Part shown: in pieces, positions 1,004 through 59,204 of the stretch
Position numbering within the stretch: position 1 is the stretch's first letter
Layout: each line of letters begins with the position of its first letter
Virus record (IMG/VR): IMGVR_UViG_3300035365_000057
Span: 1 to 64,000 of that record
DNA: 64,000 nt
Direction: 5' to 3' (one strand)
DNA from: a virus
Lineage: Duplodnaviria > Caudoviricetes
Notes under the pieces: generated by a model
Told to the model about the DNA's origin: nothing
The model's database searches: none
The model's input: the letters and a program-made list of their open reading frames with translations, nothing else
Program-made: the position numbers and the translations under genes

Positions 1004-4000
1004 TTAGTTATCAAAATACATATATTCTACCCAGTATGTACCATTTGAGATAAATATTCTTTTACCAATTGTGGTCCATTTATGAGAATATTTTATTGTA
1101 TTATTAAATAATTTTAGAGTACCTTTCAACGTTACACCAGAAGTTTTTAAGAAATTAAATATAAATATCTTACCTTTACTGCTAGATGGTGTAGGTAATG
1201 TTAATGTGATTGCACTAGAATTATTACATTCTATATAATCGTAATAAGTGTATAATTTCTAACTTGAATTTATTGATACAACATTCACAGTCAATCCGTA
1301 TATTTTTATAAGTTCTCCATTTCTAGCTTCTAATAATACATTACCGTGACTTTCTATGGCATATCCCTCAGTATTATTTAATACGCGTAAGCCATTTCCG
1401 TTAGTGCCGTATGTTGTAATATCTAATGCTATCGAACCATCTGCGCGTATTGCACACATAGCAGATGACAAATTACTATTTACTCTAAAAAACCTAGTAC
1501 CTGTAGAATCACCAATAGAAATATATGCACCAGGTGAAGAACTATCTGAATCGGATAAACCCTACTAATCGATTTTAAATGCACCGATCTTACCAGAAGT
1601 AGCATTAATGGTACCATTAAACGTGCCATCATTTGCAGTTAAGTTATTTAGAGTAACATTGCCAGAAGTATCTACAATAAACTTACCATTGATAACTGTT
1701 TTACCTACAAAGTCAATCTTCTCAGCATTTATTTCAACTGTGGTTGCTGTTTGATTTATATACGATACGATCTTATTTCCATCTTCTAATTCTTTATTAG
1801 CCCATAGTGTATTACCTTCAGAAGTGGTAACCCAGCCAGCAGCATTGATAATATCACCTTTACTATCAAAATTACCTGCAATTAAAGAAATATATTCATC
1901 TGTTTGCTATATCGCTGTTGCATTTGAAGTAGCTTTATTGTTTGCACTATTTGCTAAACTATAAGCACTATCTGCTCTATATGCTGCATCAGTTGCTTTC
2001 GAATAAGCAGTTGCTGCATCATCGGCGGCATCATCAGCTGCTATTTGTGCAGAATCAGCTGCTGTCTATGCAGAATTAGCTTTCTATGTTGCTGCTGCTG
2101 CAGCTGATGCTGCAGAAAGCGCAGCATTTTTGGCTGTTTTTATATCTTCTTCAGTCTATCCTTTAGCTGCCCACAAAGTATTACCTTCTGCTGTAGTAAC
2201 CCATCCCGCTGATTCTGCTTCAATAGCTTCAATTCTTCCGGTGTTGCTATTGACTTTACTACTAATACTAGTAACGTTAGATTCAATCTTTTCGGTATCT
2301 AACTTTATTTGTGCTACATCAGAACTAACGGTATTTGTTTTTCCTTCTAAATTAGTTATAGTGCTTTCATTCTTAGATACTCTTAATGTTATTGAATTTA
2401 TATCTAAGTTTATTTCTGATATCTATTTTGTTATCGTCTGAGTAGTCTGTTCTAGACCAGTAGTTTTGTTTTTTAATGAACTAATTTCATTAGTATTACT
2501 AGATACGCTAAGATTTATATTACCTATTTCAAGTTTTATTTGACTAATAGCTTCTTGCTATTTTGCATCAGTTTGTTCAAGATTATTAGTTTTATCTGTT
2601 ATAGTTACTATATCCTATTCAGTATTACTAACTCTTAATGATATTGAATCTATATTCAGATCTATTTCAGATACTTGTTTCTATATATTTGTAGTAGTCT
2701 GTTTGAGATTGTTTGTAGTATCCTTAAGTGTATTTATTTCAGTAGAATTCTATGTTATATTAAGATTAATATTATCAAGGCTTAATTTAATACTACTGAT
2801 AGTTTCTTCCTATTTATTATTTACTTTTTCTATACCATTGGTTTTGTCTACAAGAGTTGTTATGTTTGATTCTGTACTAGCAACACGTAATGTTATAGAA
2901 TCAAGATCCTATGATATTTCAGATACTTGCGTACTTATACTTGTTGTGGTTTGAGTAAGTTCTTCAGTTGATTCTTCTAATCCTGTGATACTTTCCTCAT
3001 TCTTTTCAAACCTGGTAGTAAATTCCTAAGCTGACAAAGTAAATTCACTATGATACTCTTCTAAAGTTTCGTCCAGATGTGTTACTTTCTAATCAAAAGT
3101 AATAGTCAATTCCTCTGCAGATAACTCTATTGCTGATGTATATTCTGAAGTTATTTCCTATTTAGCATCTGTGATCTTCTTATTAAAATCTACTGTTAAT
3201 TCTTCCGCAGATAAATTAATAGCCGATGTATATTCTTCGGTAATCTCATTCTTAGTATTAGTTATTTTTTTATCGAATTCTACTCTAAGATTTTCAGCAG
3301 TTAATTCTATCAATGAAGTATACTCGGATGTTATACTCTTTTTAGTATCCGTTATCTTCTTATCGAATTTTATTTCTAACTATTCTGCTGTTAATGTAAA
3401 TTCGCTATGATACTCTTCTAATTTTCCATTTATCTCTGAAATATTATGGTCAAATTTAATATTTAATTCTTCCGCGGTCAATCTAAACTCACTATGATAT
3501 TTTTCAAGTTTGCCATTTACTTCAGATATGTCGTGTTCAAACGATACTCTTAATTGTTCTGCAGTTAACTAGAATTCACTACGATATTCTTCTAATCTAC
3601 CATCAATTTCTTCAATACTGTGTTCAAACGATACTCTTAATTCTTCAGCAGTAAATAAGAATTCGCTATGGTATTCTTCTAGTTTATTAGATGTTTCAAT
3701 TATTTTATCGTAGTTAGCCTATATCTTTTCATTAGTAATCTATAACTGTCCGTTAATATATTCATTTAGATTACCTAAATCATCGTCATATAATATAACA
3801 GAATGGATTAAGATTTCTCCTGTAAAACTCAGATAAAAATCACCAGTACCATTCCATTTACCACTTATCTTTAAAGTATTAAAGATAGACGTAGGATTGA
3901 GTTGCTGTGTATAATTTATTTTCTCATATTCCTCAAAATCACCAGTATCTTCATTCTTAAAATAAATAGTAAGTATACCTGGTCTTAATACTTTATATCT

Positions 4001-23924: not shown

Positions 23925-23962
23925 ACTCTGCTATCAGACTTCAAGTATGCAGTTTTTATTTG

Positions 23963-24034
23963 TCGCCCCAGTCTCGATTCGAACGGACAACTCGAAGGTT
24001 AGAGCTTCGCATATTACCTTTATACTATGGGGCA
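23963..24034 (-). tRNA. Amber suppressor tRNA (anticodon CUA, presumably Gln)
   Basis: TGCCCCA/TGGGGCG acceptor; CGAAG-CTCTAAC-CTTCG anticodon arm; TTCGAAT T-loop. Confidence 0.92.
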
Positions 24035-33399: not shown

Positions 33400-34680
33400 A
33401 TTATGAGTCAGGTATGACCTCATAAAGAGTTAGGTAACGCTAACATACCATATTACTATAGTTACTCTTCTAATGCAGCCAGATAAAGACAGTCACAAGC
33501 CTGTTTAATGCAGAGTGGAAGATCGTACGATTGAGTTTAGGTTTGACTCATAAAATAAAGTAACTAATCTTAAAGCAAGCAACGGAGAATAACGCTGTAC
33601 CAAAACAGAGGACAATGGTGCTTGACAGTATGACACTAACTGATAAATAATGTGTTGTGAAAATTAATTAAAATTCATGAATTTTACTCAAGCTATATAG
33701 TGTGAGTAAACGTACAGCCGCACGTTAGTGGGTTACAGTTCGTATTCTAGCAAGAAAAGAATATTGTATTGCCGAAAACTGGGGACATGTAAATAATACG
33801 TAGGTTCCGTACACATGTTGAAGAAACCAATCGAATAGTAAGCATAGAGAAATAGGCAAACGACCAGCCAAAATGGTAGTGCTTACAAATAAAAAAGATA
33901 AGAGAAAGTGATATCCGTGCATATATAGATATCTTAGTATAGTTAAGGCCTCAAGCTGCACTGAGCAAATATATTACACTTATCTTTATTAAACTCTTTA
34001 CTGAATTGCAGCCTAAATATGTCAAAGGTAGCGCATGAAAGTAAAGAGTTTCTACACTGTGAGAATCAGTGTCAACTTTGTGGGGCTTATATTTAGATGA
34101 GCGCACAAAAGTAAACCTATATTGTGTGTAGCATTTCGAAAAATTATATTTAAACTAGCTAGATAATTCGTAGAAAGAGTGATATCAGTATAGAGAGACT
34201 TTTGCATCTAATATTAGTGCAGAGAAATCAAAGACAAGATTATATCCTGAGTGTATAATCTAGTAAACTACTAGAGGCTGGTCACCTCGGCAGGAAAGCG
34301 CGACCATGGAGAGGTTTGTGGTAGTACCTCTCCGCTCTTTATGGTGAGAATCCATGACAAGCATGTGGGGCTTATATCTTTATGAGAGACAATACGGTAA
34401 AAATACCCTTCATAAAGTATTAGTGCGGACTTAAAAATCATGCAATGTAACAATTTACTTCTCAATCTCGCGTATAAATACTTCACGTTACAAATCTTGT
34501 TACATTTATTTGGGCTAAGTGTAGCCTAGTCATTAGCCACTTTATAAAACCTTCTTTCTTTTATGTAAAGATCTAGCATATTAGTCTGTGAAGATCGATA
34601 TGCTAGGTGCACTCATGAGATAACCTTCACGTGGTGAGTGTGTAAGTAAGGGTCTAACAAAACTTCCTATTCTACCCTGA
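33400..34680 (+). ncRNA. Structured non-coding region (unassigned RNA motifs)
   Basis: About 1.3 kb with no credible ORF; long-range helix 33405-12/33542-49 and repeated hairpin motifs. Confidence 0.5.
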
Positions 34681-37717: not shown

Positions 37718-38001
37718 CTTTTTTTATTTGTGTCACTTTACCTTTTTATGTTTTAAGTCATACTAGTCTGTGAGGATAGGTATGACGTCCTCAGAAGATG
37801 ACAAACCTGTGGGGCGTAAACTATGTCCTATTTTAAGAGTTAGGCTTGCATAACTCAGTAAATCAGGATGCAAGAACATAGTGATCGTGCGGACGTTAAA
37901 ATCAGGTACTCCAATAAGAAATAGTTTGACAGCTTATTTCTGCTTACGAGTTAAAACTAAAGTAAGATAGTCATATTAAAAATTAACAATAATGTAGATT
38001 T

Positions 38002-39034: not shown

Positions 39035-39549
39035 GCCAGAAAAAAGTAGAATTTAGAAATAAATTCAGAAAAGAAGTTTCAGACATGAACAAAAACATCA
39101 AACAAGCAGAAACTTCAATAAAAATCTTTGACGAAAAGTTCAAAAAGAGACCAAAGCATAAAAAAATGGAACCATACAAACGTGATAAAAAATTATGGAG
39201 ATAAAACAAGATTGCCCTACACAAGATAATAAAATCAACTGTAGTGAATGTAGTCATGAGTGTAAACTCAGAATACAACCAGAAATAGAAGCTAATTCGA
39301 ATTTGCCAGAGTCCGAATTAGCAACTATATATTACTAACTAAAACTTAGTATACATGGTGGATTCAGTCAACCTAAGAACTATTTTATAACCAGAATCCT
39401 AATGGAAGCCCAAAAGGCAAGAGTACAAGGGACCATACAACGGTCAACCAATTTATATTGGTCTGGAGAAGAGCAGGGGTTATCTACTAAATAAGACGTA
39501 CGAATAAGTAGAAATAGTTCTTTTTATTTAAAAATCAAAATTAAAAAAC

Positions 39550-41006: not shown

Positions 41007-41062
41007 AGTAGGGAGGTTACCTAGATTAAGTTCTATGGGGAGTTCGATTCTCCCCTCTACTA
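41007..41062 (+). ncRNA. Minimal tRNA-like element (acceptor stem + T arm, no D arm)
   Basis: AGTAGGG/CTCTACT-A with GGGAG-TTCGATT-CTCCC; only 24 nt between them. End coordinate approximate. Confidence 0.55.
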
Positions 41063-49195: not shown

Positions 49196-49327
49196 ACAGT
49201 ACTGAACTGGGTACTGTTTAACATAGAATTACTGAACTGGGTAGTTCTTTGTTTATATCATAAGTAATCCAAGGTATTGAATTGGATACTTGGTGGATGT
49301 TAAAGGTTCGACTCCTTTGCTTATGAC
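49196..49327 (+). ncRNA. Three UGAAYUGG-loop hairpins, the third inside a tRNA-like acceptor/T-arm frame
   Basis: Stems differ while loops are conserved; TCATAAG/CTTATGA acceptor-like stem and AAAGG-TTCGACT-CCTTT T arm. Confidence 0.65.
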
Positions 49328-51275: not shown

Positions 51276-51351
51276 TCGCATATAGCTCAGTTGGTAGAGC
51301 CGCAATACTAATACTGTGTGATTTGCGTGGGTTCGAGTCCCACTATGCGAT
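51276..51351 (+). tRNA. Atypical tRNA (anticodon uncertain, AAU by best fold)
   Basis: TCGCATA/TATGCGA acceptor, canonical D and T arms; anticodon arm 3 nt too long and irregular. Confidence 0.6.
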
Positions 51352-56222: not shown

Positions 56223-56825
56223 ATGATATACAGTACAGAATTAGCAAACAAGATTGAAACTATCGATAACAGTAATAAATATCTTGAAGCAGGTATTCAT
56301 GAAAACGTATCTTTAGTAAGTGCAAGAACAGAAAAATCTATTAACGGTAATACGTTCTTAGAAATTAAGTTCGAAAAGGATGGTAAATCATTAGTTCATA
56401 CTGAATGGGAATCTAACAAATTTCCTGAAATGACTGAAGAAGCATACCAGGAGAGAGTATCTCGTCAGGTTAAGCGTGTACTTCAGATTTTGAGCTGTTT
56501 CTATCCTAAAGAAGCACTTGTGTTTGCAGGAGCAACTTATAAAGAATTTGCAGAGTGGGCTGCGAATCTATTAAATGCTGCAGATAAGACGAAATTAGTA
56601 AGAGTAAAGATTGTATATAACAATAAGGGATATACTACTTTGCCTAGCTATTGTAAGTTTACTTTCATTGAACCTATGGAATTACCAGAAGGTGAAAAGA
56701 GTAAGATTACAATTCTGAATATCGATCAGATAACTCGTCCTGTTGTAGCAGATAACGAAGCAAAAGAAACAAATCCTTTGGAAGGAACTACAGAAACATC
56801 AACTAACGATGATCTGCCTTTCTAA
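56223..56825 (+). CDS. Putative single-stranded DNA-binding protein
   Basis: Follows the Sak4-like gene; acidic tail ending DDLPF. Confidence 0.7.
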   Translation: MIYSTELANKIETIDNSNKYLEAGIHENVSLVSARTEKSINGNTFLEIKFEKDGKSLVHTEWESNKFPEMTEEAYQERVSRQVKRVLQILSCFYPKEALVFAGATYKEFAEWAANLLNAADKTKLVRVKIVYNNKGYTTLPSYCKFTFIEPMELPEGEKSKITILNIDQITRPVVADNEAKETNPLEGTTETSTNDDLPF

Positions 56826-56870
56826 AGATTAAAACAAAATAAGCCGCCTACGCTAGGCATATATAGCGAC

Positions 56871-56955
56871 ACGAGGATTAGTATACCACACTATGAAACT
56901 ATCTAAGATAAGTCAGAATAAGTGATTACAAAATAGTATACAATCCTCGTTTTTT
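56871..56955 (+). terminator. Long-loop hairpin with T-tract
   Basis: ACGAGGATT-A-GTATAC ... GTATAC-AATCCTCGT then TTTTT. Confidence 0.5.
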
Positions 56956-56992
56956 AGAAAAAAAATAATATCAAAAACGATTGTTTATAGTC

Positions 56993-57068
56993 TGTGGTTT
57001 AGCTCAGTGGTAGAGCGACAGTTCTTAGTAAGCTGTAGGTCGTAGGTTCGAATCCGGTACAACCACGG
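56993..57068 (+). tRNA. Atypical tRNA (Thr-like scaffold; loop TCTTAGTAA, anticodon ambiguous)
   Basis: TGTGGTT/AACCACG acceptor, canonical D arm, ACAGT/GCTGT stem with 9-nt loop, 2-nt bulge in the T stem. Confidence 0.65.
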
Positions 57069-57117
57069 GTCAACGTTGGAGTTGCTATAAAAGGTAGTTT
57101 TGATATTTTTAAAAAAA

Positions 57118-57628
57118 GGACTTTTAGCTCAGTCGGTCAGAGCATTTAGATTAAAAAAATATGCAAAAAATGAAAAAATACGATATAGAAAACGTAATAG
57201 ATTTACGCGATAATTAGAACTTAACTTGGAAACAAATTGGAAATCTTTTAAAAATCTCTCCAGAAACATTACGAAAAGCATATAAAAGAATAAAAGAAGA
57301 AAAGACTTCGCATTAGATAAATCCGAATTCTTATATTTTTCAAAAGAAAAGAGGTTTGGAAAGAAAAAAACAATTTGTAAAAGATTTAGGTGGAAAATGT
57401 CAAATATGCGGTTATAATAAAAATATAGCAGCGTTAGAATTTCATCACATACAACCAAGTACAAAAAAATTCCAATTAGATGTAAGACACTTATCAAATA
57501 CAAATATACAAACATTAAAAGAAGAAATAGAAAAATGTATATTAGTGTGTGCTAATTGTCATAGAGAAATTCATTATGCTGCATAACTCATAATCTGAAG
57601 GTCGTAGGTTCAAGCCCTACAAGGTCCA
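57118..57628 (+). tRNA. tRNA-Met(CAU) interrupted by a 436-nt HNH-coding insert
   Basis: 5' half 57118-57150 (GGACTTT, D arm, TTAGA); 3' half 57587-57628 (CTCATAA, TCTGA, AGGTC, T arm, AAGGTCC-A); the halves pair. Confidence 0.85.
57170..57586 (+). CDS. HTH-HNH endonuclease, 138 aa (2 TAG=Gln)
   Basis: MKKYDIENVIDLRDNQ(TAG)NLTWKQIGNLLKISPETLRKAYKR...CQICGY...LEFHH...LVCANCHREIH. Confidence 0.85.
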
Positions 57629-57647
57629 CAATTAAACCATATATCAT

Positions 57648-58619
57648 ATGCTATACGATACAACTAAAATACAAGAAGAACAGCAAGTTACGTTAGAATG
57701 GATACTTTCTAAAGTAACTGAATATGATATATACTCAGCGTATATTGGTAATTTTAAAGTAGGAATGATCTATAACAGTCCTTTTAGACAGGATAAAAAT
57801 CCTTCATTTGGCTGTTATTACAGTAGAACGACGAAACAACTAATGTTTAAAGATCATGGTACAGGTGATTGCGGTAATGTAATTAAATTCGTCTCATTAC
57901 TTACCGGTTTAACTAATTATTCAGATATACTCAATAATATAGTTAATAAGCTTAAAATTACTAATAATACGCAACTCGTTAGCTCTAAGCAATACATATC
58001 GTCCAAAGAGACAGTAATTGGTGTTGTCCGACAAGACTTTACTCTAACTGACACCAATTACTGGTCTCAGTTCAATATATCATTAGATACATTGAAAAAA
58101 TTTGGAGTAAGTAGTATTAAATATTATTTATGTGACGGTATTGTTAAGGGTATTTACAAGGATACAAATCCTATGTACGCATATAAGGTCTACAATCATT
58201 TTAAAATATATCGACCTTTAGCAGATAAATATACGAAATGGCGTAATAACCTGACAGAAAATGATATTCAGGGGTTTAAACAGTTACCTAAAACTGGAGA
58301 TATACTCATTATTACAAAGAGTATGAAAGACGTCATGTGTTTATACGAAATGGGTATACCAGCAATAAGCCCATCATCAGAAAGTACGTTTATTCCAGAT
58401 AAGGCTTTAGAACAGCTTAAAAAACGTTTTAAACGCATTATAATACTTTTTGATAGAGATAAAGCTGGTGTTAAATATCTTCGCAAAATAAGCGTTAAAA
58501 CAGGCTTAGAAGGATTTCTTTTAAATAAGAAATTTAAAGCAAAAGATGTATCGGATGCTATTAAAGCTAATGGATTTGAAAAAATTAAAAGTTGGATTTA
58601 TAAAGAGTTAAAACTATGA
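57648..58619 (+). CDS. dnaG: DNA primase (TOPRIM)
   Basis: SPFRQDKNPSF, FKDHG, ITKSMKD, FDRDKAG, KDVSD. Confidence 0.88.
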   Translation: MLYDTTKIQEEQQVTLEWILSKVTEYDIYSAYIGNFKVGMIYNSPFRQDKNPSFGCYYSRTTKQLMFKDHGTGDCGNVIKFVSLLTGLTNYSDILNNIVNKLKITNNTQLVSSKQYISSKETVIGVVRQDFTLTDTNYWSQFNISLDTLKKFGVSSIKYYLCDGIVKGIYKDTNPMYAYKVYNHFKIYRPLADKYTKWRNNLTENDIQGFKQLPKTGDILIITKSMKDVMCLYEMGIPAISPSSESTFIPDKALEQLKKRFKRIIILFDRDKAGVKYLRKISVKTGLEGFLLNKKFKAKDVSDAIKANGFEKIKSWIYKELKL

Positions 58620-58840
58620 ATACAGTAAATAAAATATTCAATGGAATTCGTAAAATAATTGCTTTTCCTTTTAAAGCAATTGGTATTATTACTATTGTAC
58701 TTGGTACACTGATTCTATTAGGTGGATTTAGTATTTATGGTAATATTGATAATGTGAAAAAATCAATAGCAGATCTAAAAATTGAATTAGAAAATACCAA
58801 AAATGAGATAGAAAAAGCAAAGAAAGAAGAAAAAGAGTGA
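58616..58840 (+). CDS. Small membrane protein
   Basis: One TM segment followed by a coiled coil. Confidence 0.6.
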   Translation: MNTVNKIFNGIRKIIAFPFKAIGIITIVLGTLILLGGFSIYGNIDNVKKSIADLKIELENTKNEIEKAKKEEKE

Positions 58841-59204
58841 AGGTCTTGTTAAGAACGCCACTCCTAACGAATTCGATGGAATAAAATTTCGTAGTAAACT
58901 TGAAACATATACATATAAAAAGCTGAAAGAAGCAAAAATAGATGCTGAATATGAAAAGCATAAATTTGAGCTACTTCCAGCTTTTAATTTTCATGGTGAA
59001 AAAGTAAGAGCAATTACATATTTACCAGATTTTGTCGGAAAAAACTTTATAATTGAATGTAAAGGATTTCCGAATGATGCCTTTCCTTTAAAGGAAAAAC
59101 TATTCAAACATCTGCTCGTGGATATACTCCCAGATAGTATGTATTATGTAGTACATACTCAAAAACAAGTCGATAAATTAATTAACGAATTGAAAAATCT
59201 ATGA
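58803..59204 (+). CDS. PD-(D/E)XK endonuclease (resolvase/DUF1064-like), 133 aa, TAG at codon 3
   Basis: ATG AGA TAG AAA...KNATPNEFDGIKFRSKLE...YLPDF...IIECKG; TGA overlaps the next ATG; missing from the ORF track. Confidence 0.8.

Follow-up and report, generated by a model that had tools for sequence, protein, structure and literature searches.

Positions 57118–57628 of the window (the whole 64,000-nucleotide stretch of DNA analysed, from a crAss-like phage of chicken gut origin whose nearest annotated relatives are Suoliviridae/Loutivirinae, e.g. cr4_1) hold a tRNA(CAU) in two halves, separated by an HNH endonuclease gene. We conclude, with moderate confidence, that a homing-endonuclease cassette is accommodated here in the anticodon arm, a dispensable part, of a non-decoding, tRNA-like punctuation element, and that this is not a spliced tRNA. 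Homing endonucleases in essential genes normally persist only within self-splicing introns or inteins. The HNH gene described here appears to persist inside a tRNA-shaped RNA without splicing, since what counts in that RNA is its shape, not its anticodon; if correct, the locus represents a new type of safe harbour for selfish genes. The locus is made up of the following parts.

57118–57150, plus strand: 5′ half of the tRNA-shaped frame (D arm, with the 5′ strands of acceptor and anticodon stem)
57151–57586, plus strand: insert of 436 nt, between tRNA positions 31 and 32
57170–57586, plus strand: HNH homing-endonuclease gene (138 aa from ATG 57170; 141 aa from 57161)
57587–57628, plus strand: 3′ half (anticodon loop, variable loop, T arm and discriminator A, with the 3′ strands of anticodon stem and acceptor)
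57629–57647, plus strand: conserved leader ending ATATATCAT, ahead of the primase ATG
57648–58619, plus strand: DNA primase gene (zinc ribbon and Toprim)

Segments 57118–57150 and 57587–57628 are the two halves of a single tRNA(CAU), and they are intact and complementary, as the original prediction had stated. The acceptor GGACTTT/AAGGTCC is paired at 7/7 positions and the anticodon stem TTAGA/TCTGA at 5/5, each with one G-U. The D arm is GCTC-AGTCGGTCA-GAGC, the T arm GTAGG-TTCAAGC-CCTAC and the anticodon loop CTCATAA, with CAT at 57589–57591; CCA is not encoded in the 3′ half. One extra base lies between the D stem and the anticodon stem, and the same base is found in intact homologues. ARAGORN in default mode does not call the split tRNA in the native sequence, but calls a 76-nt tRNA-Met(CAT) once 57150 and 57587 are joined in silico; with its intron option, it calls a tRNA in the native DNA with a 436-nt intervening sequence. 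The Rfam tRNA model scores only 15 bits, in the 5′ part. With 436 nt interrupting the gene, the locus does not have the contiguous cloverleaf and 7-nt anticodon loop of a canonical decoding tRNA. The 3′ half is 91% identical to the intact tRNA-Met of Lak-A1, an uninterrupted tRNA-Met carried by an unrelated phage contig of 158 kb (L132) is likewise a close match, and these intact homologues indicate that the halves derive from a real phage tRNA(CAU) family.

The insert begins TTAAA and finishes ATAA; its last base is A, and the nearest G lies 6 nt upstream. Nearly all of its 436 nt are occupied by the ORF, whose TAA (57584–57586) abuts the loop CTCATAA as originally described, leaving only ∼10–19 non-coding bases. 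ATG 57170 is the most likely start, since relatives have either lost ATG 57161 or carry it out of frame. The product matches PF01844 (E = 8e-7, 29.6 bits; cut-off 21.4) and phrog_2255 (E = 5.5e-26) and carries a C-terminal CxxC...HH...CxxCH core, in which C80, C83, H95, H96, C130, N132, C133, H134 and H138 are invariant across 13 homologues. It thus has the His, Asn and Zn-binding Cys core of the PF01844 HNH endonucleases. A PDB sequence search with the protein returned nothing at E ≤ 0.01. The description of the ORF as HTH-HNH holds for its HNH part; for an HTH there is only a sub-threshold Pfam hint at the N-terminus.

The cassette (both halves and the HNH gene) recurs in 13 further contigs, as five distinct sequences with four tRNA variants (V1–V4). 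Variable sites in the HNH gene are distributed 11/3/31 over the three codon positions, and 27–30 nucleotide changes accompany 10–12 amino acid changes. Judging from this pattern, the gene is clearly live and under purifying selection.

The closest annotated relatives of the HNH protein are free-standing genes within tRNA arrays of T5-like, FelixO1-like, Lak and jumbo phages, and tRNA genes flank a relative at 11 of 15 IMG/VR loci. By these affinities, the gene is best grouped with the free-standing nucleases of phage tRNA clusters. Relatives at 60–66% identity adjoin split or orphan tRNA(CAU) pieces. One contig (L117, ∼1000–1700) has a tRNA-Met split by the HNH gene, with ∼11 nt missing and an extra tRNA-like element before the HNH gene; another (L119, ∼980–1090) has an orphan tRNA 5′ half followed by an intact tRNA-Met and the HNH gene. 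At ∼1100–1200 in L114–L116 and L118, a conserved tRNA-like element with covarying acceptors precedes the related HNH gene.

The reading frame of the HNH gene contains two TAG codons, and a suppressor tRNA needed for reading them is encoded elsewhere in the window.

57215–57217, plus strand: first in-frame TAG, codon 16 of the HNH gene counted from ATG 57170
57314–57316, plus strand: second in-frame TAG of the HNH gene
23962–24034, minus strand: suppressor tRNA with anticodon CUA

We confirmed that these two codons lie in an otherwise TAG-free early arm: all other plus-strand ORFs of at least 99 aa with coding-looking frames between 31.5 and 61 kb are free of TAG, whereas the late genes on the minus strand have up to 24 in-frame TAGs. 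Only one other long plus-strand ORF of the early arm, 58803–59204 (133 aa), has an in-frame TAG, a single one. The first TAG of the HNH gene is kept in all five distinct variants, and homologues show Q, D, N or E at this position. The second is CAG or CAA in every other variant, an alternation which indicates that TAG is read as Gln in this gene. Because an in-frame TAG is conserved, full-length nuclease would be made only once the phage suppressor tRNA-CUA is active, i.e. in late infection, and late-only translation of the HNH gene through TAG is plausible from the sequence.

The halves could be rejoined at the RNA level. The original prediction had leaned towards a functional spliced or two-piece tRNA and had taken the preservation of both halves as its sign. 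On this explanation, either proteins (a host or phage endonuclease with an RtcB-type ligase) or a cryptic ribozyme would remove the insert to yield tRNA-Met or tRNA-Ile2(CAU), with the HNH protein as the homing enzyme of the intron. The halves do hold every canonical tRNA feature and give tRNA-Met when joined, compensatory changes keep the stems, the insertion site is the same in every variant and Bacteroides genomes encode RtcB. Moreover, in the predicted fold of the 511-nt RNA, the first three insert bases, TTA, pair with loop bases TAA to give a 9-bp extended anticodon stem, much as intron bases pair with the anticodon loop in many pre-tRNAs.

The same fold, however, places the 5′ junction inside the continuous 9-bp helix and the splice sites outside any bulge-helix-bulge (BHB), so that the insert does not qualify as an archaeal-type BHB intron. 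No group I, group II or other ribozyme model of Rfam matches 56700–57900 at E ≤ 10. The insert does not combine the P1–P9 core, terminal G and 5′-splice-site U of group I introns (no RF00028 match), and the non-coding bases left beside the ORF are very few. Nor does it have domains I–VI, the GUGYG...AY ends and the usual RT ORF of group II introns, its ORF being HNH. The absence of a ribozyme match and of a terminal G agrees with what had been noted before. RtcB, Rnl2-type, T4 Rnl1-type and EndA genes were sought in the 76.5-kb record (77% complete) and none was found, PF01974, PF01139, PF09414 and PF09511 all being without a match there; the idea of an RNA ligase elsewhere in the genome thus found no support in this record. 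The host may supply RtcB, so the missing phage ligase is compatible with splicing.

The joined junction 57150|57587 occurs in none of the contigs examined. One tRNA variant has the anticodon AAT, the slot in 92 relatives holds non-decoding elements (see below) and the tRNA-Met split by a related HNH gene in L117 has lost ∼11 nt that splicing cannot restore. We therefore regard a spliced tRNA, by whatever means, as very unlikely. Its strictest form, a ribozyme-free phage tRNA intron in which proteins (e.g. a host endonuclease plus RtcB) excise the insert and ligate the halves into a decoding tRNA(CAU), is a shade less likely still; if true, protein-spliced tRNA introns would for the first time be known from beyond archaea and eukaryotes. 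To our knowledge, no protein-spliced tRNA intron exists in bacteria or phages. Preservation of the halves is better explained by a frame that needs its acceptor, T and D arms and can do without an anticodon loop.

What such a frame might be for is suggested by its location. The split tRNA ends 19 nt ahead of the primase ATG, and at the same slot in relatives, elements end 14–23 nt ahead of it. We compared 92 HNH-less relatives, made up of 9 GenBank crAss-like phages, 80 IMG/VR contigs (primase identity 82–91%) and 3 Logan/ENA contigs (93–96%). A tRNA-like frame of some kind is present at the primase slot in all 92. Strict criteria (5-bp T stem with T-loop motif, acceptor with at least 6/7 pairs and an end no more than 45 nt from the primase ATG) are satisfied by 80 of the 92, compared with 0–3 in shuffled sequences and 0 in the reverse complement; in the remaining 12, either the T stem is bulged by one base or the acceptor has a mismatch. 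The slot helices covary, as is evident from 14 distinct acceptor pairs and 10 distinct T stems.

Between these conserved helices, the slot elements differ widely. The distance from the acceptor 5′ strand to the T stem is 10, 15, 39, 45, 58 or 87–104 nt, compared with 41 in a real tRNA, and the bodies range from a 10-nt minihelix through a D arm alone (15–16 nt) or a tetraloop arm to 45–104 nt of other structured RNA. In the HNH-less elements, the anticodon arm is missing, reduced to a tetraloop or replaced by 20–100 nt of other RNA, and there is no canonical decoder. ARAGORN finds no canonical tRNA at the slot in 80 of 84 loci, and its four calls have undefined or dubious anticodons; the Rfam tRNA model matches two slot elements, only by skipping inserts of 50–65 nt. 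Judged by these features, the slot is held by a tRNA-like element that is unable to decode. Its covarying acceptor and T arm, fixed site by an mRNA end and non-canonical body are those of a tRNA-like processing element. Since every HNH-less relative keeps a tRNA-like frame there, the slot is under selection. In HNH-positive genomes, the cassette is the sole occupant of the slot. The literature searched held nothing relevant on tRNA-like elements or tRNA introns in Crassvirales, and a tRNA-like punctuation family of this kind is not described in the papers covered.

The L002-type slot element (∼1446–1570) corresponds to the L053/L054 type plus a 34-nt insert with 10–11-nt direct repeats CTATTATAATA. 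It has the look of slippage or of a very small mobile insert within the pseudo-anticodon arm.

The halves of the cassette look maintained among the variants, and not in decay. Across the five distinct sequences, 99.2% of the cloverleaf stem cells pair. Acceptor pair 6-67 is T-A in the clade of the window and C-G in V3, a change on both sides of a 430-nt insert, and D-stem pair 11-24 changes from C-G to T-A in V4. In addition, one G-U becomes A-U, and in one variant a D-stem pair gives way to a C.A mismatch. Six stem-column changes are thus seen: four compensate, and of the other two, one strengthens a pair and the other disrupts one; the observed covariation score was reached by 9 of 500 shuffles. 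With five sequences, this covariation is suggestive of maintenance of the halves. Repeated homing into already diverged intact alleles could produce the same covariation. Outside the stems, C and T both occur at position 32. V1–V3 have the anticodon CAT and V4 (L128, L131) has AAT; the anticodon is not conserved among orthologues as that of a decoding tRNA would be.

In the predicted fold, the acceptor (pair probabilities 0.71–1.0), D arm and T arm are kept, and the minimum free energy structure retains the cloverleaf frame. The acceptor helix also forms with each of 40 shuffled inserts, so that framing is owed to the halves and not to any special adaptation of the insert.

These data bear on a simpler explanation, insertional inactivation: the tRNA would be dead, its halves a functionless recent scar of endonuclease-driven recombination, and the covariation a result of differing intact alleles. 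Acceptor pairing would survive whatever the insert sequence, the divergence of the halves (3/76 between the window and L113) is not significantly below that of the ORF or the spacer, and orphan or incomplete tRNA(CAU) halves adjoin related HNH genes in L117 and L119. A scar, on the other hand, does not account for a tRNA-like frame at this very spot in 92/92 HNH-less relatives (80 by the strict criteria), nor readily for stem changes that are compensatory in four of six cases, with one more improving and one breaking a pair. Furthermore, an intact allele is found neither in any relative's slot nor by three junction scans of sequence collections, which returned only the L132 homologue. We consider inactivation unlikely on balance, if still deserving of some weight.

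The reading we prefer, a frame kept for its shape, has difficulties of its own. In the variant of the window, the CTCATAA loop and all canonical tRNA features persist, and a pure frame function needs neither. The covariation amounts to two both-sided changes among five sequences, for which independent homing is an alternative. One variant carries the D-stem C.A mismatch, and the slot of relatives is without an intact allele of this exact tRNA.

The history of the cassette can be read from closely related phages. L112 and L113 encode an identical primase protein, and the flanks of their slots match at 149/150 positions on the left and 296/300 on the right. The slot of L113 holds the split tRNA with the HNH gene, and that of L112 an unrelated 85-nt tRNA-like element, TLS-X. 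The swapped segment is exactly the element, between ...GATATTTT and ACAATTAAACC. TLS-X is also present in L110 and L111 (1900–1980 in L110 and L112, 1899–1980 in L111) and has the acceptor GAGAGA/CTCTCTC. The stem of its hairpin covaries (CTGCG/CGCAG, CCGCT/AGCGG, TCGTA/TACGA), and the hairpin loop is conserved as ATAGGGAG or ATAGGTAG. This pattern suggests a selected ligand-binding loop grafted into a tRNA-like frame.

In a contig from run X6, an independent bird metagenome, 57109 is joined to 57627 with 80 other letters between, and a contig from an RNA-library run (X15) also has an HNH-less allele. A short piece from X17 covering 57587–57620 was rejected as a cross-match of a bacterial initiator tRNA-fMet. 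The left flank of the window is nearer to that of HNH-less L112 (792/799) than to that of HNH-positive L113 (777/797), and in L126, L127, L129 and L130, the cassette stands directly after a terminator-like hairpin, without the neighbouring aberrant tRNA (tRNA1, below). The cassette is therefore found in at least two left-flank contexts, from which it appears to move between backgrounds, as expected of a homing element. Sporadic presence and absence at one locus among close relatives is likewise the behaviour of a homing endonuclease. The alternative offered by the original prediction, a nuclease that homes into tRNA genes, thus gains on two counts at the sequence level: the family resides in and around phage tRNA genes, and the gene is present or absent between near-identical phages.

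An uninterrupted allele of the split tRNA in the slot was sought in relatives and by scans of collections, and none was found. The 5′ half as an exact DNA pattern gave 0 matches in IMG/VR, the joined junction GCATTTAGAYTCATAATCTRAAGGTCG gave 0 in IMG/VR and GTDB genomes, and patterns of tRNA1 gave 0 in IMG/VR and JGI metagenomes. The sole find of a shorter junction pattern was the intact homologous tRNA-Met in L132.

Immediately after the primase gene, L112 and L113 carry a NUMOD4/HNH_3-type endonuclease gene (2968–3480) that the window does not have. By its family and location, it would be a second homing-endonuclease polymorphism in the same operon.

Two further elements lie upstream of the slot.

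56872–56955, plus strand: terminator-like long hairpin followed by a T run
56994–57066, plus strand: aberrant tRNA ("tRNA1"), bulged in the T stem and with 9 nt in the anticodon loop, TCTTAGTAA

Element tRNA1 scores 37 bits with the Rfam tRNA model and is not called by ARAGORN. It is kept with few changes in L110–L113, both with and without the HNH gene, and is missing from the backgrounds of the V3 cassette; it forms part of the left flank of the cassette. The hairpin at 56872–56955 matches no Rfam family. It is conserved at the same place in L001–L003 and L022–L113, its loop in relatives holding variable structured inserts of up to ∼150 nt, and an upstream ATAGCG/CGCTAT pairing could compete with it.

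Further tRNA-like frames occur on the plus strand at 41007–41061, 49259–49325 and 51276–51350, each 25–56 nt upstream of an early gene. All three have an acceptor and a T arm, and their anticodon arm is aberrant or missing. The leader of the element at 51276, ...ATATATTCATATG, resembles the primase leader. ARAGORN labels this element tRNA-Ile(AAT); we rejected it as support for a decoding AAU tRNA, as its anticodon arm is aberrant. A scan of the whole window for acceptor and T arm up to 600 nt apart gives 2–12 chance hits in shuffled sequences, and such a scan alone is therefore no evidence for the split frame. The early arm also contains, with scores above the Rfam gathering thresholds, three Hatchet ribozymes and a RAGATH-9 RNA (34050–34443, 37787–37907, 39364–39522), one Hatchet lying ∼250 nt upstream of a tRNA-Leu (34697).

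Taken together, the observations are best accommodated by a mobile cassette, in which a free-standing HNH gene has settled in a tRNA(CAU)-derived gene, where the anticodon loop starts on its 5′ side. This cassette would occupy the tRNA-like slot that Loutivirinae-type crAss-like phages maintain immediately ahead of the primase gene, both halves and the HNH gene replacing the resident tRNA-like element in phages that are otherwise 98–99% identical. Replacement of the resident element at the DNA level is largely shown by the aligned genomes, and the homing endonuclease would drag its flanks along, as T4 SegB does. The transcript would stay unspliced, with the halves pairing across the 436-nt insert into a tRNA-shaped frame and the HNH mRNA forming an oversized anticodon loop on the 9-bp extended stem. 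The job of the slot would need only this frame, most likely for recognition by host RNase P and RNase Z, which by analogy would cut the early transcript just ahead of the primase leader. If only the frame is needed, any content of the anticodon arm would be tolerated, and the selfish gene would gain a safe harbour from which it could not be deleted imprecisely.

The frame might instead mainly serve the nuclease: RNase P and RNase Z would excise a tRNA-capped, exonuclease-resistant HNH mRNA, and any function on the primase side would be incidental. This would fit the tmRNA-like topology, the related HNH genes in L114–L118 that are each preceded by a tRNA-like element of their own, and the conserved TAG, which would silence a stored mRNA until late infection. 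It would also fit the location of the insert at the cargo position of engineered tRNA scaffolds; the scaffolded RNAs tested so far are, however, structured and no longer than ∼250 nt (PMC3753655). In addition, the slot element of 92 relatives is without an ORF, so that the frame predates its cargo here. We think it quite improbable that service to the nuclease is the main role of the frame.

If our preferred reading of a cassette in a punctuation element is correct, crAss-like phages, which rank with the most abundant viruses of the gut, depend on a family of tRNA-like punctuation elements in which the anticodon arm can evolve freely, and the locus is a natural counterpart of the engineered tRNA scaffold, with stop-codon recoding as a timer for the nuclease. 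It would also call for caution in annotation, as an interrupted or abnormal "tRNA gene" in these phages is not necessarily a pseudogene or a tRNA with an intron.

Several known systems resemble parts of this arrangement. The cyanobacterial tRNA-fMet group I intron, which encodes I-Ssp6803I, likewise places the ORF of a homing endonuclease in the anticodon loop of a tRNA(CAU). That ORF lies inside a self-splicing ribozyme of ∼650 nt with a terminal G, whereas the insert of the window has neither and is filled by its ORF. Archaeal bulge-helix-bulge introns and split tRNAs share the ribozyme-free interruption and the halves that are still complementary, but archaeal BHB introns depend on EndA and on junctions with a BHB motif; searches for the window turned up neither, and the host is bacterial. 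tmRNA also joins a tRNA-like domain to an internal ORF. It differs in its pseudoknots, alanine identity and a tag ORF without a start codon; the window shows no pseudoknot architecture, 56700–57900 has no match to the Rfam tmRNA model (RF00023) and ARAGORN finds no tmRNA in the window.

T4 SegB and the F-Tfl HNH enzymes of T5 spread their own gene along with neighbouring tRNA genes (PMC2330249), and as in the window, the nuclease gene resides among tRNA genes. Their genes, however, lie between intact tRNA genes, whereas the HNH gene of the window lies inside one, at the edge of the anticodon loop; its host element occupies a non-decoding slot, and its expression would need TAG suppression. In plant mitochondria, tRNA-like folds termed t-elements guide cleavage by RNase P and RNase Z at the ends of mRNAs (Forner et al. 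2007, PMC1920247). The slot elements share with them a non-canonical tRNA-like fold, a conserved T arm and a location adjacent to an mRNA. t-elements are cut by RNase P and RNase Z, whereas the slot element is a phage element predicted from sequence, one occupant of which carries a protein-coding gene. Finally, bacteria process and stabilise RNAs that replace the anticodon stem-loop of engineered tRNA scaffolds (Ponchon and Dardel; PMC3753655). There, as in the window, acceptor, T and D arms close off a foreign RNA at the position of the anticodon stem-loop; the frame of the window, however, is natural, and its cargo is a 138-codon mRNA with its own start codon.
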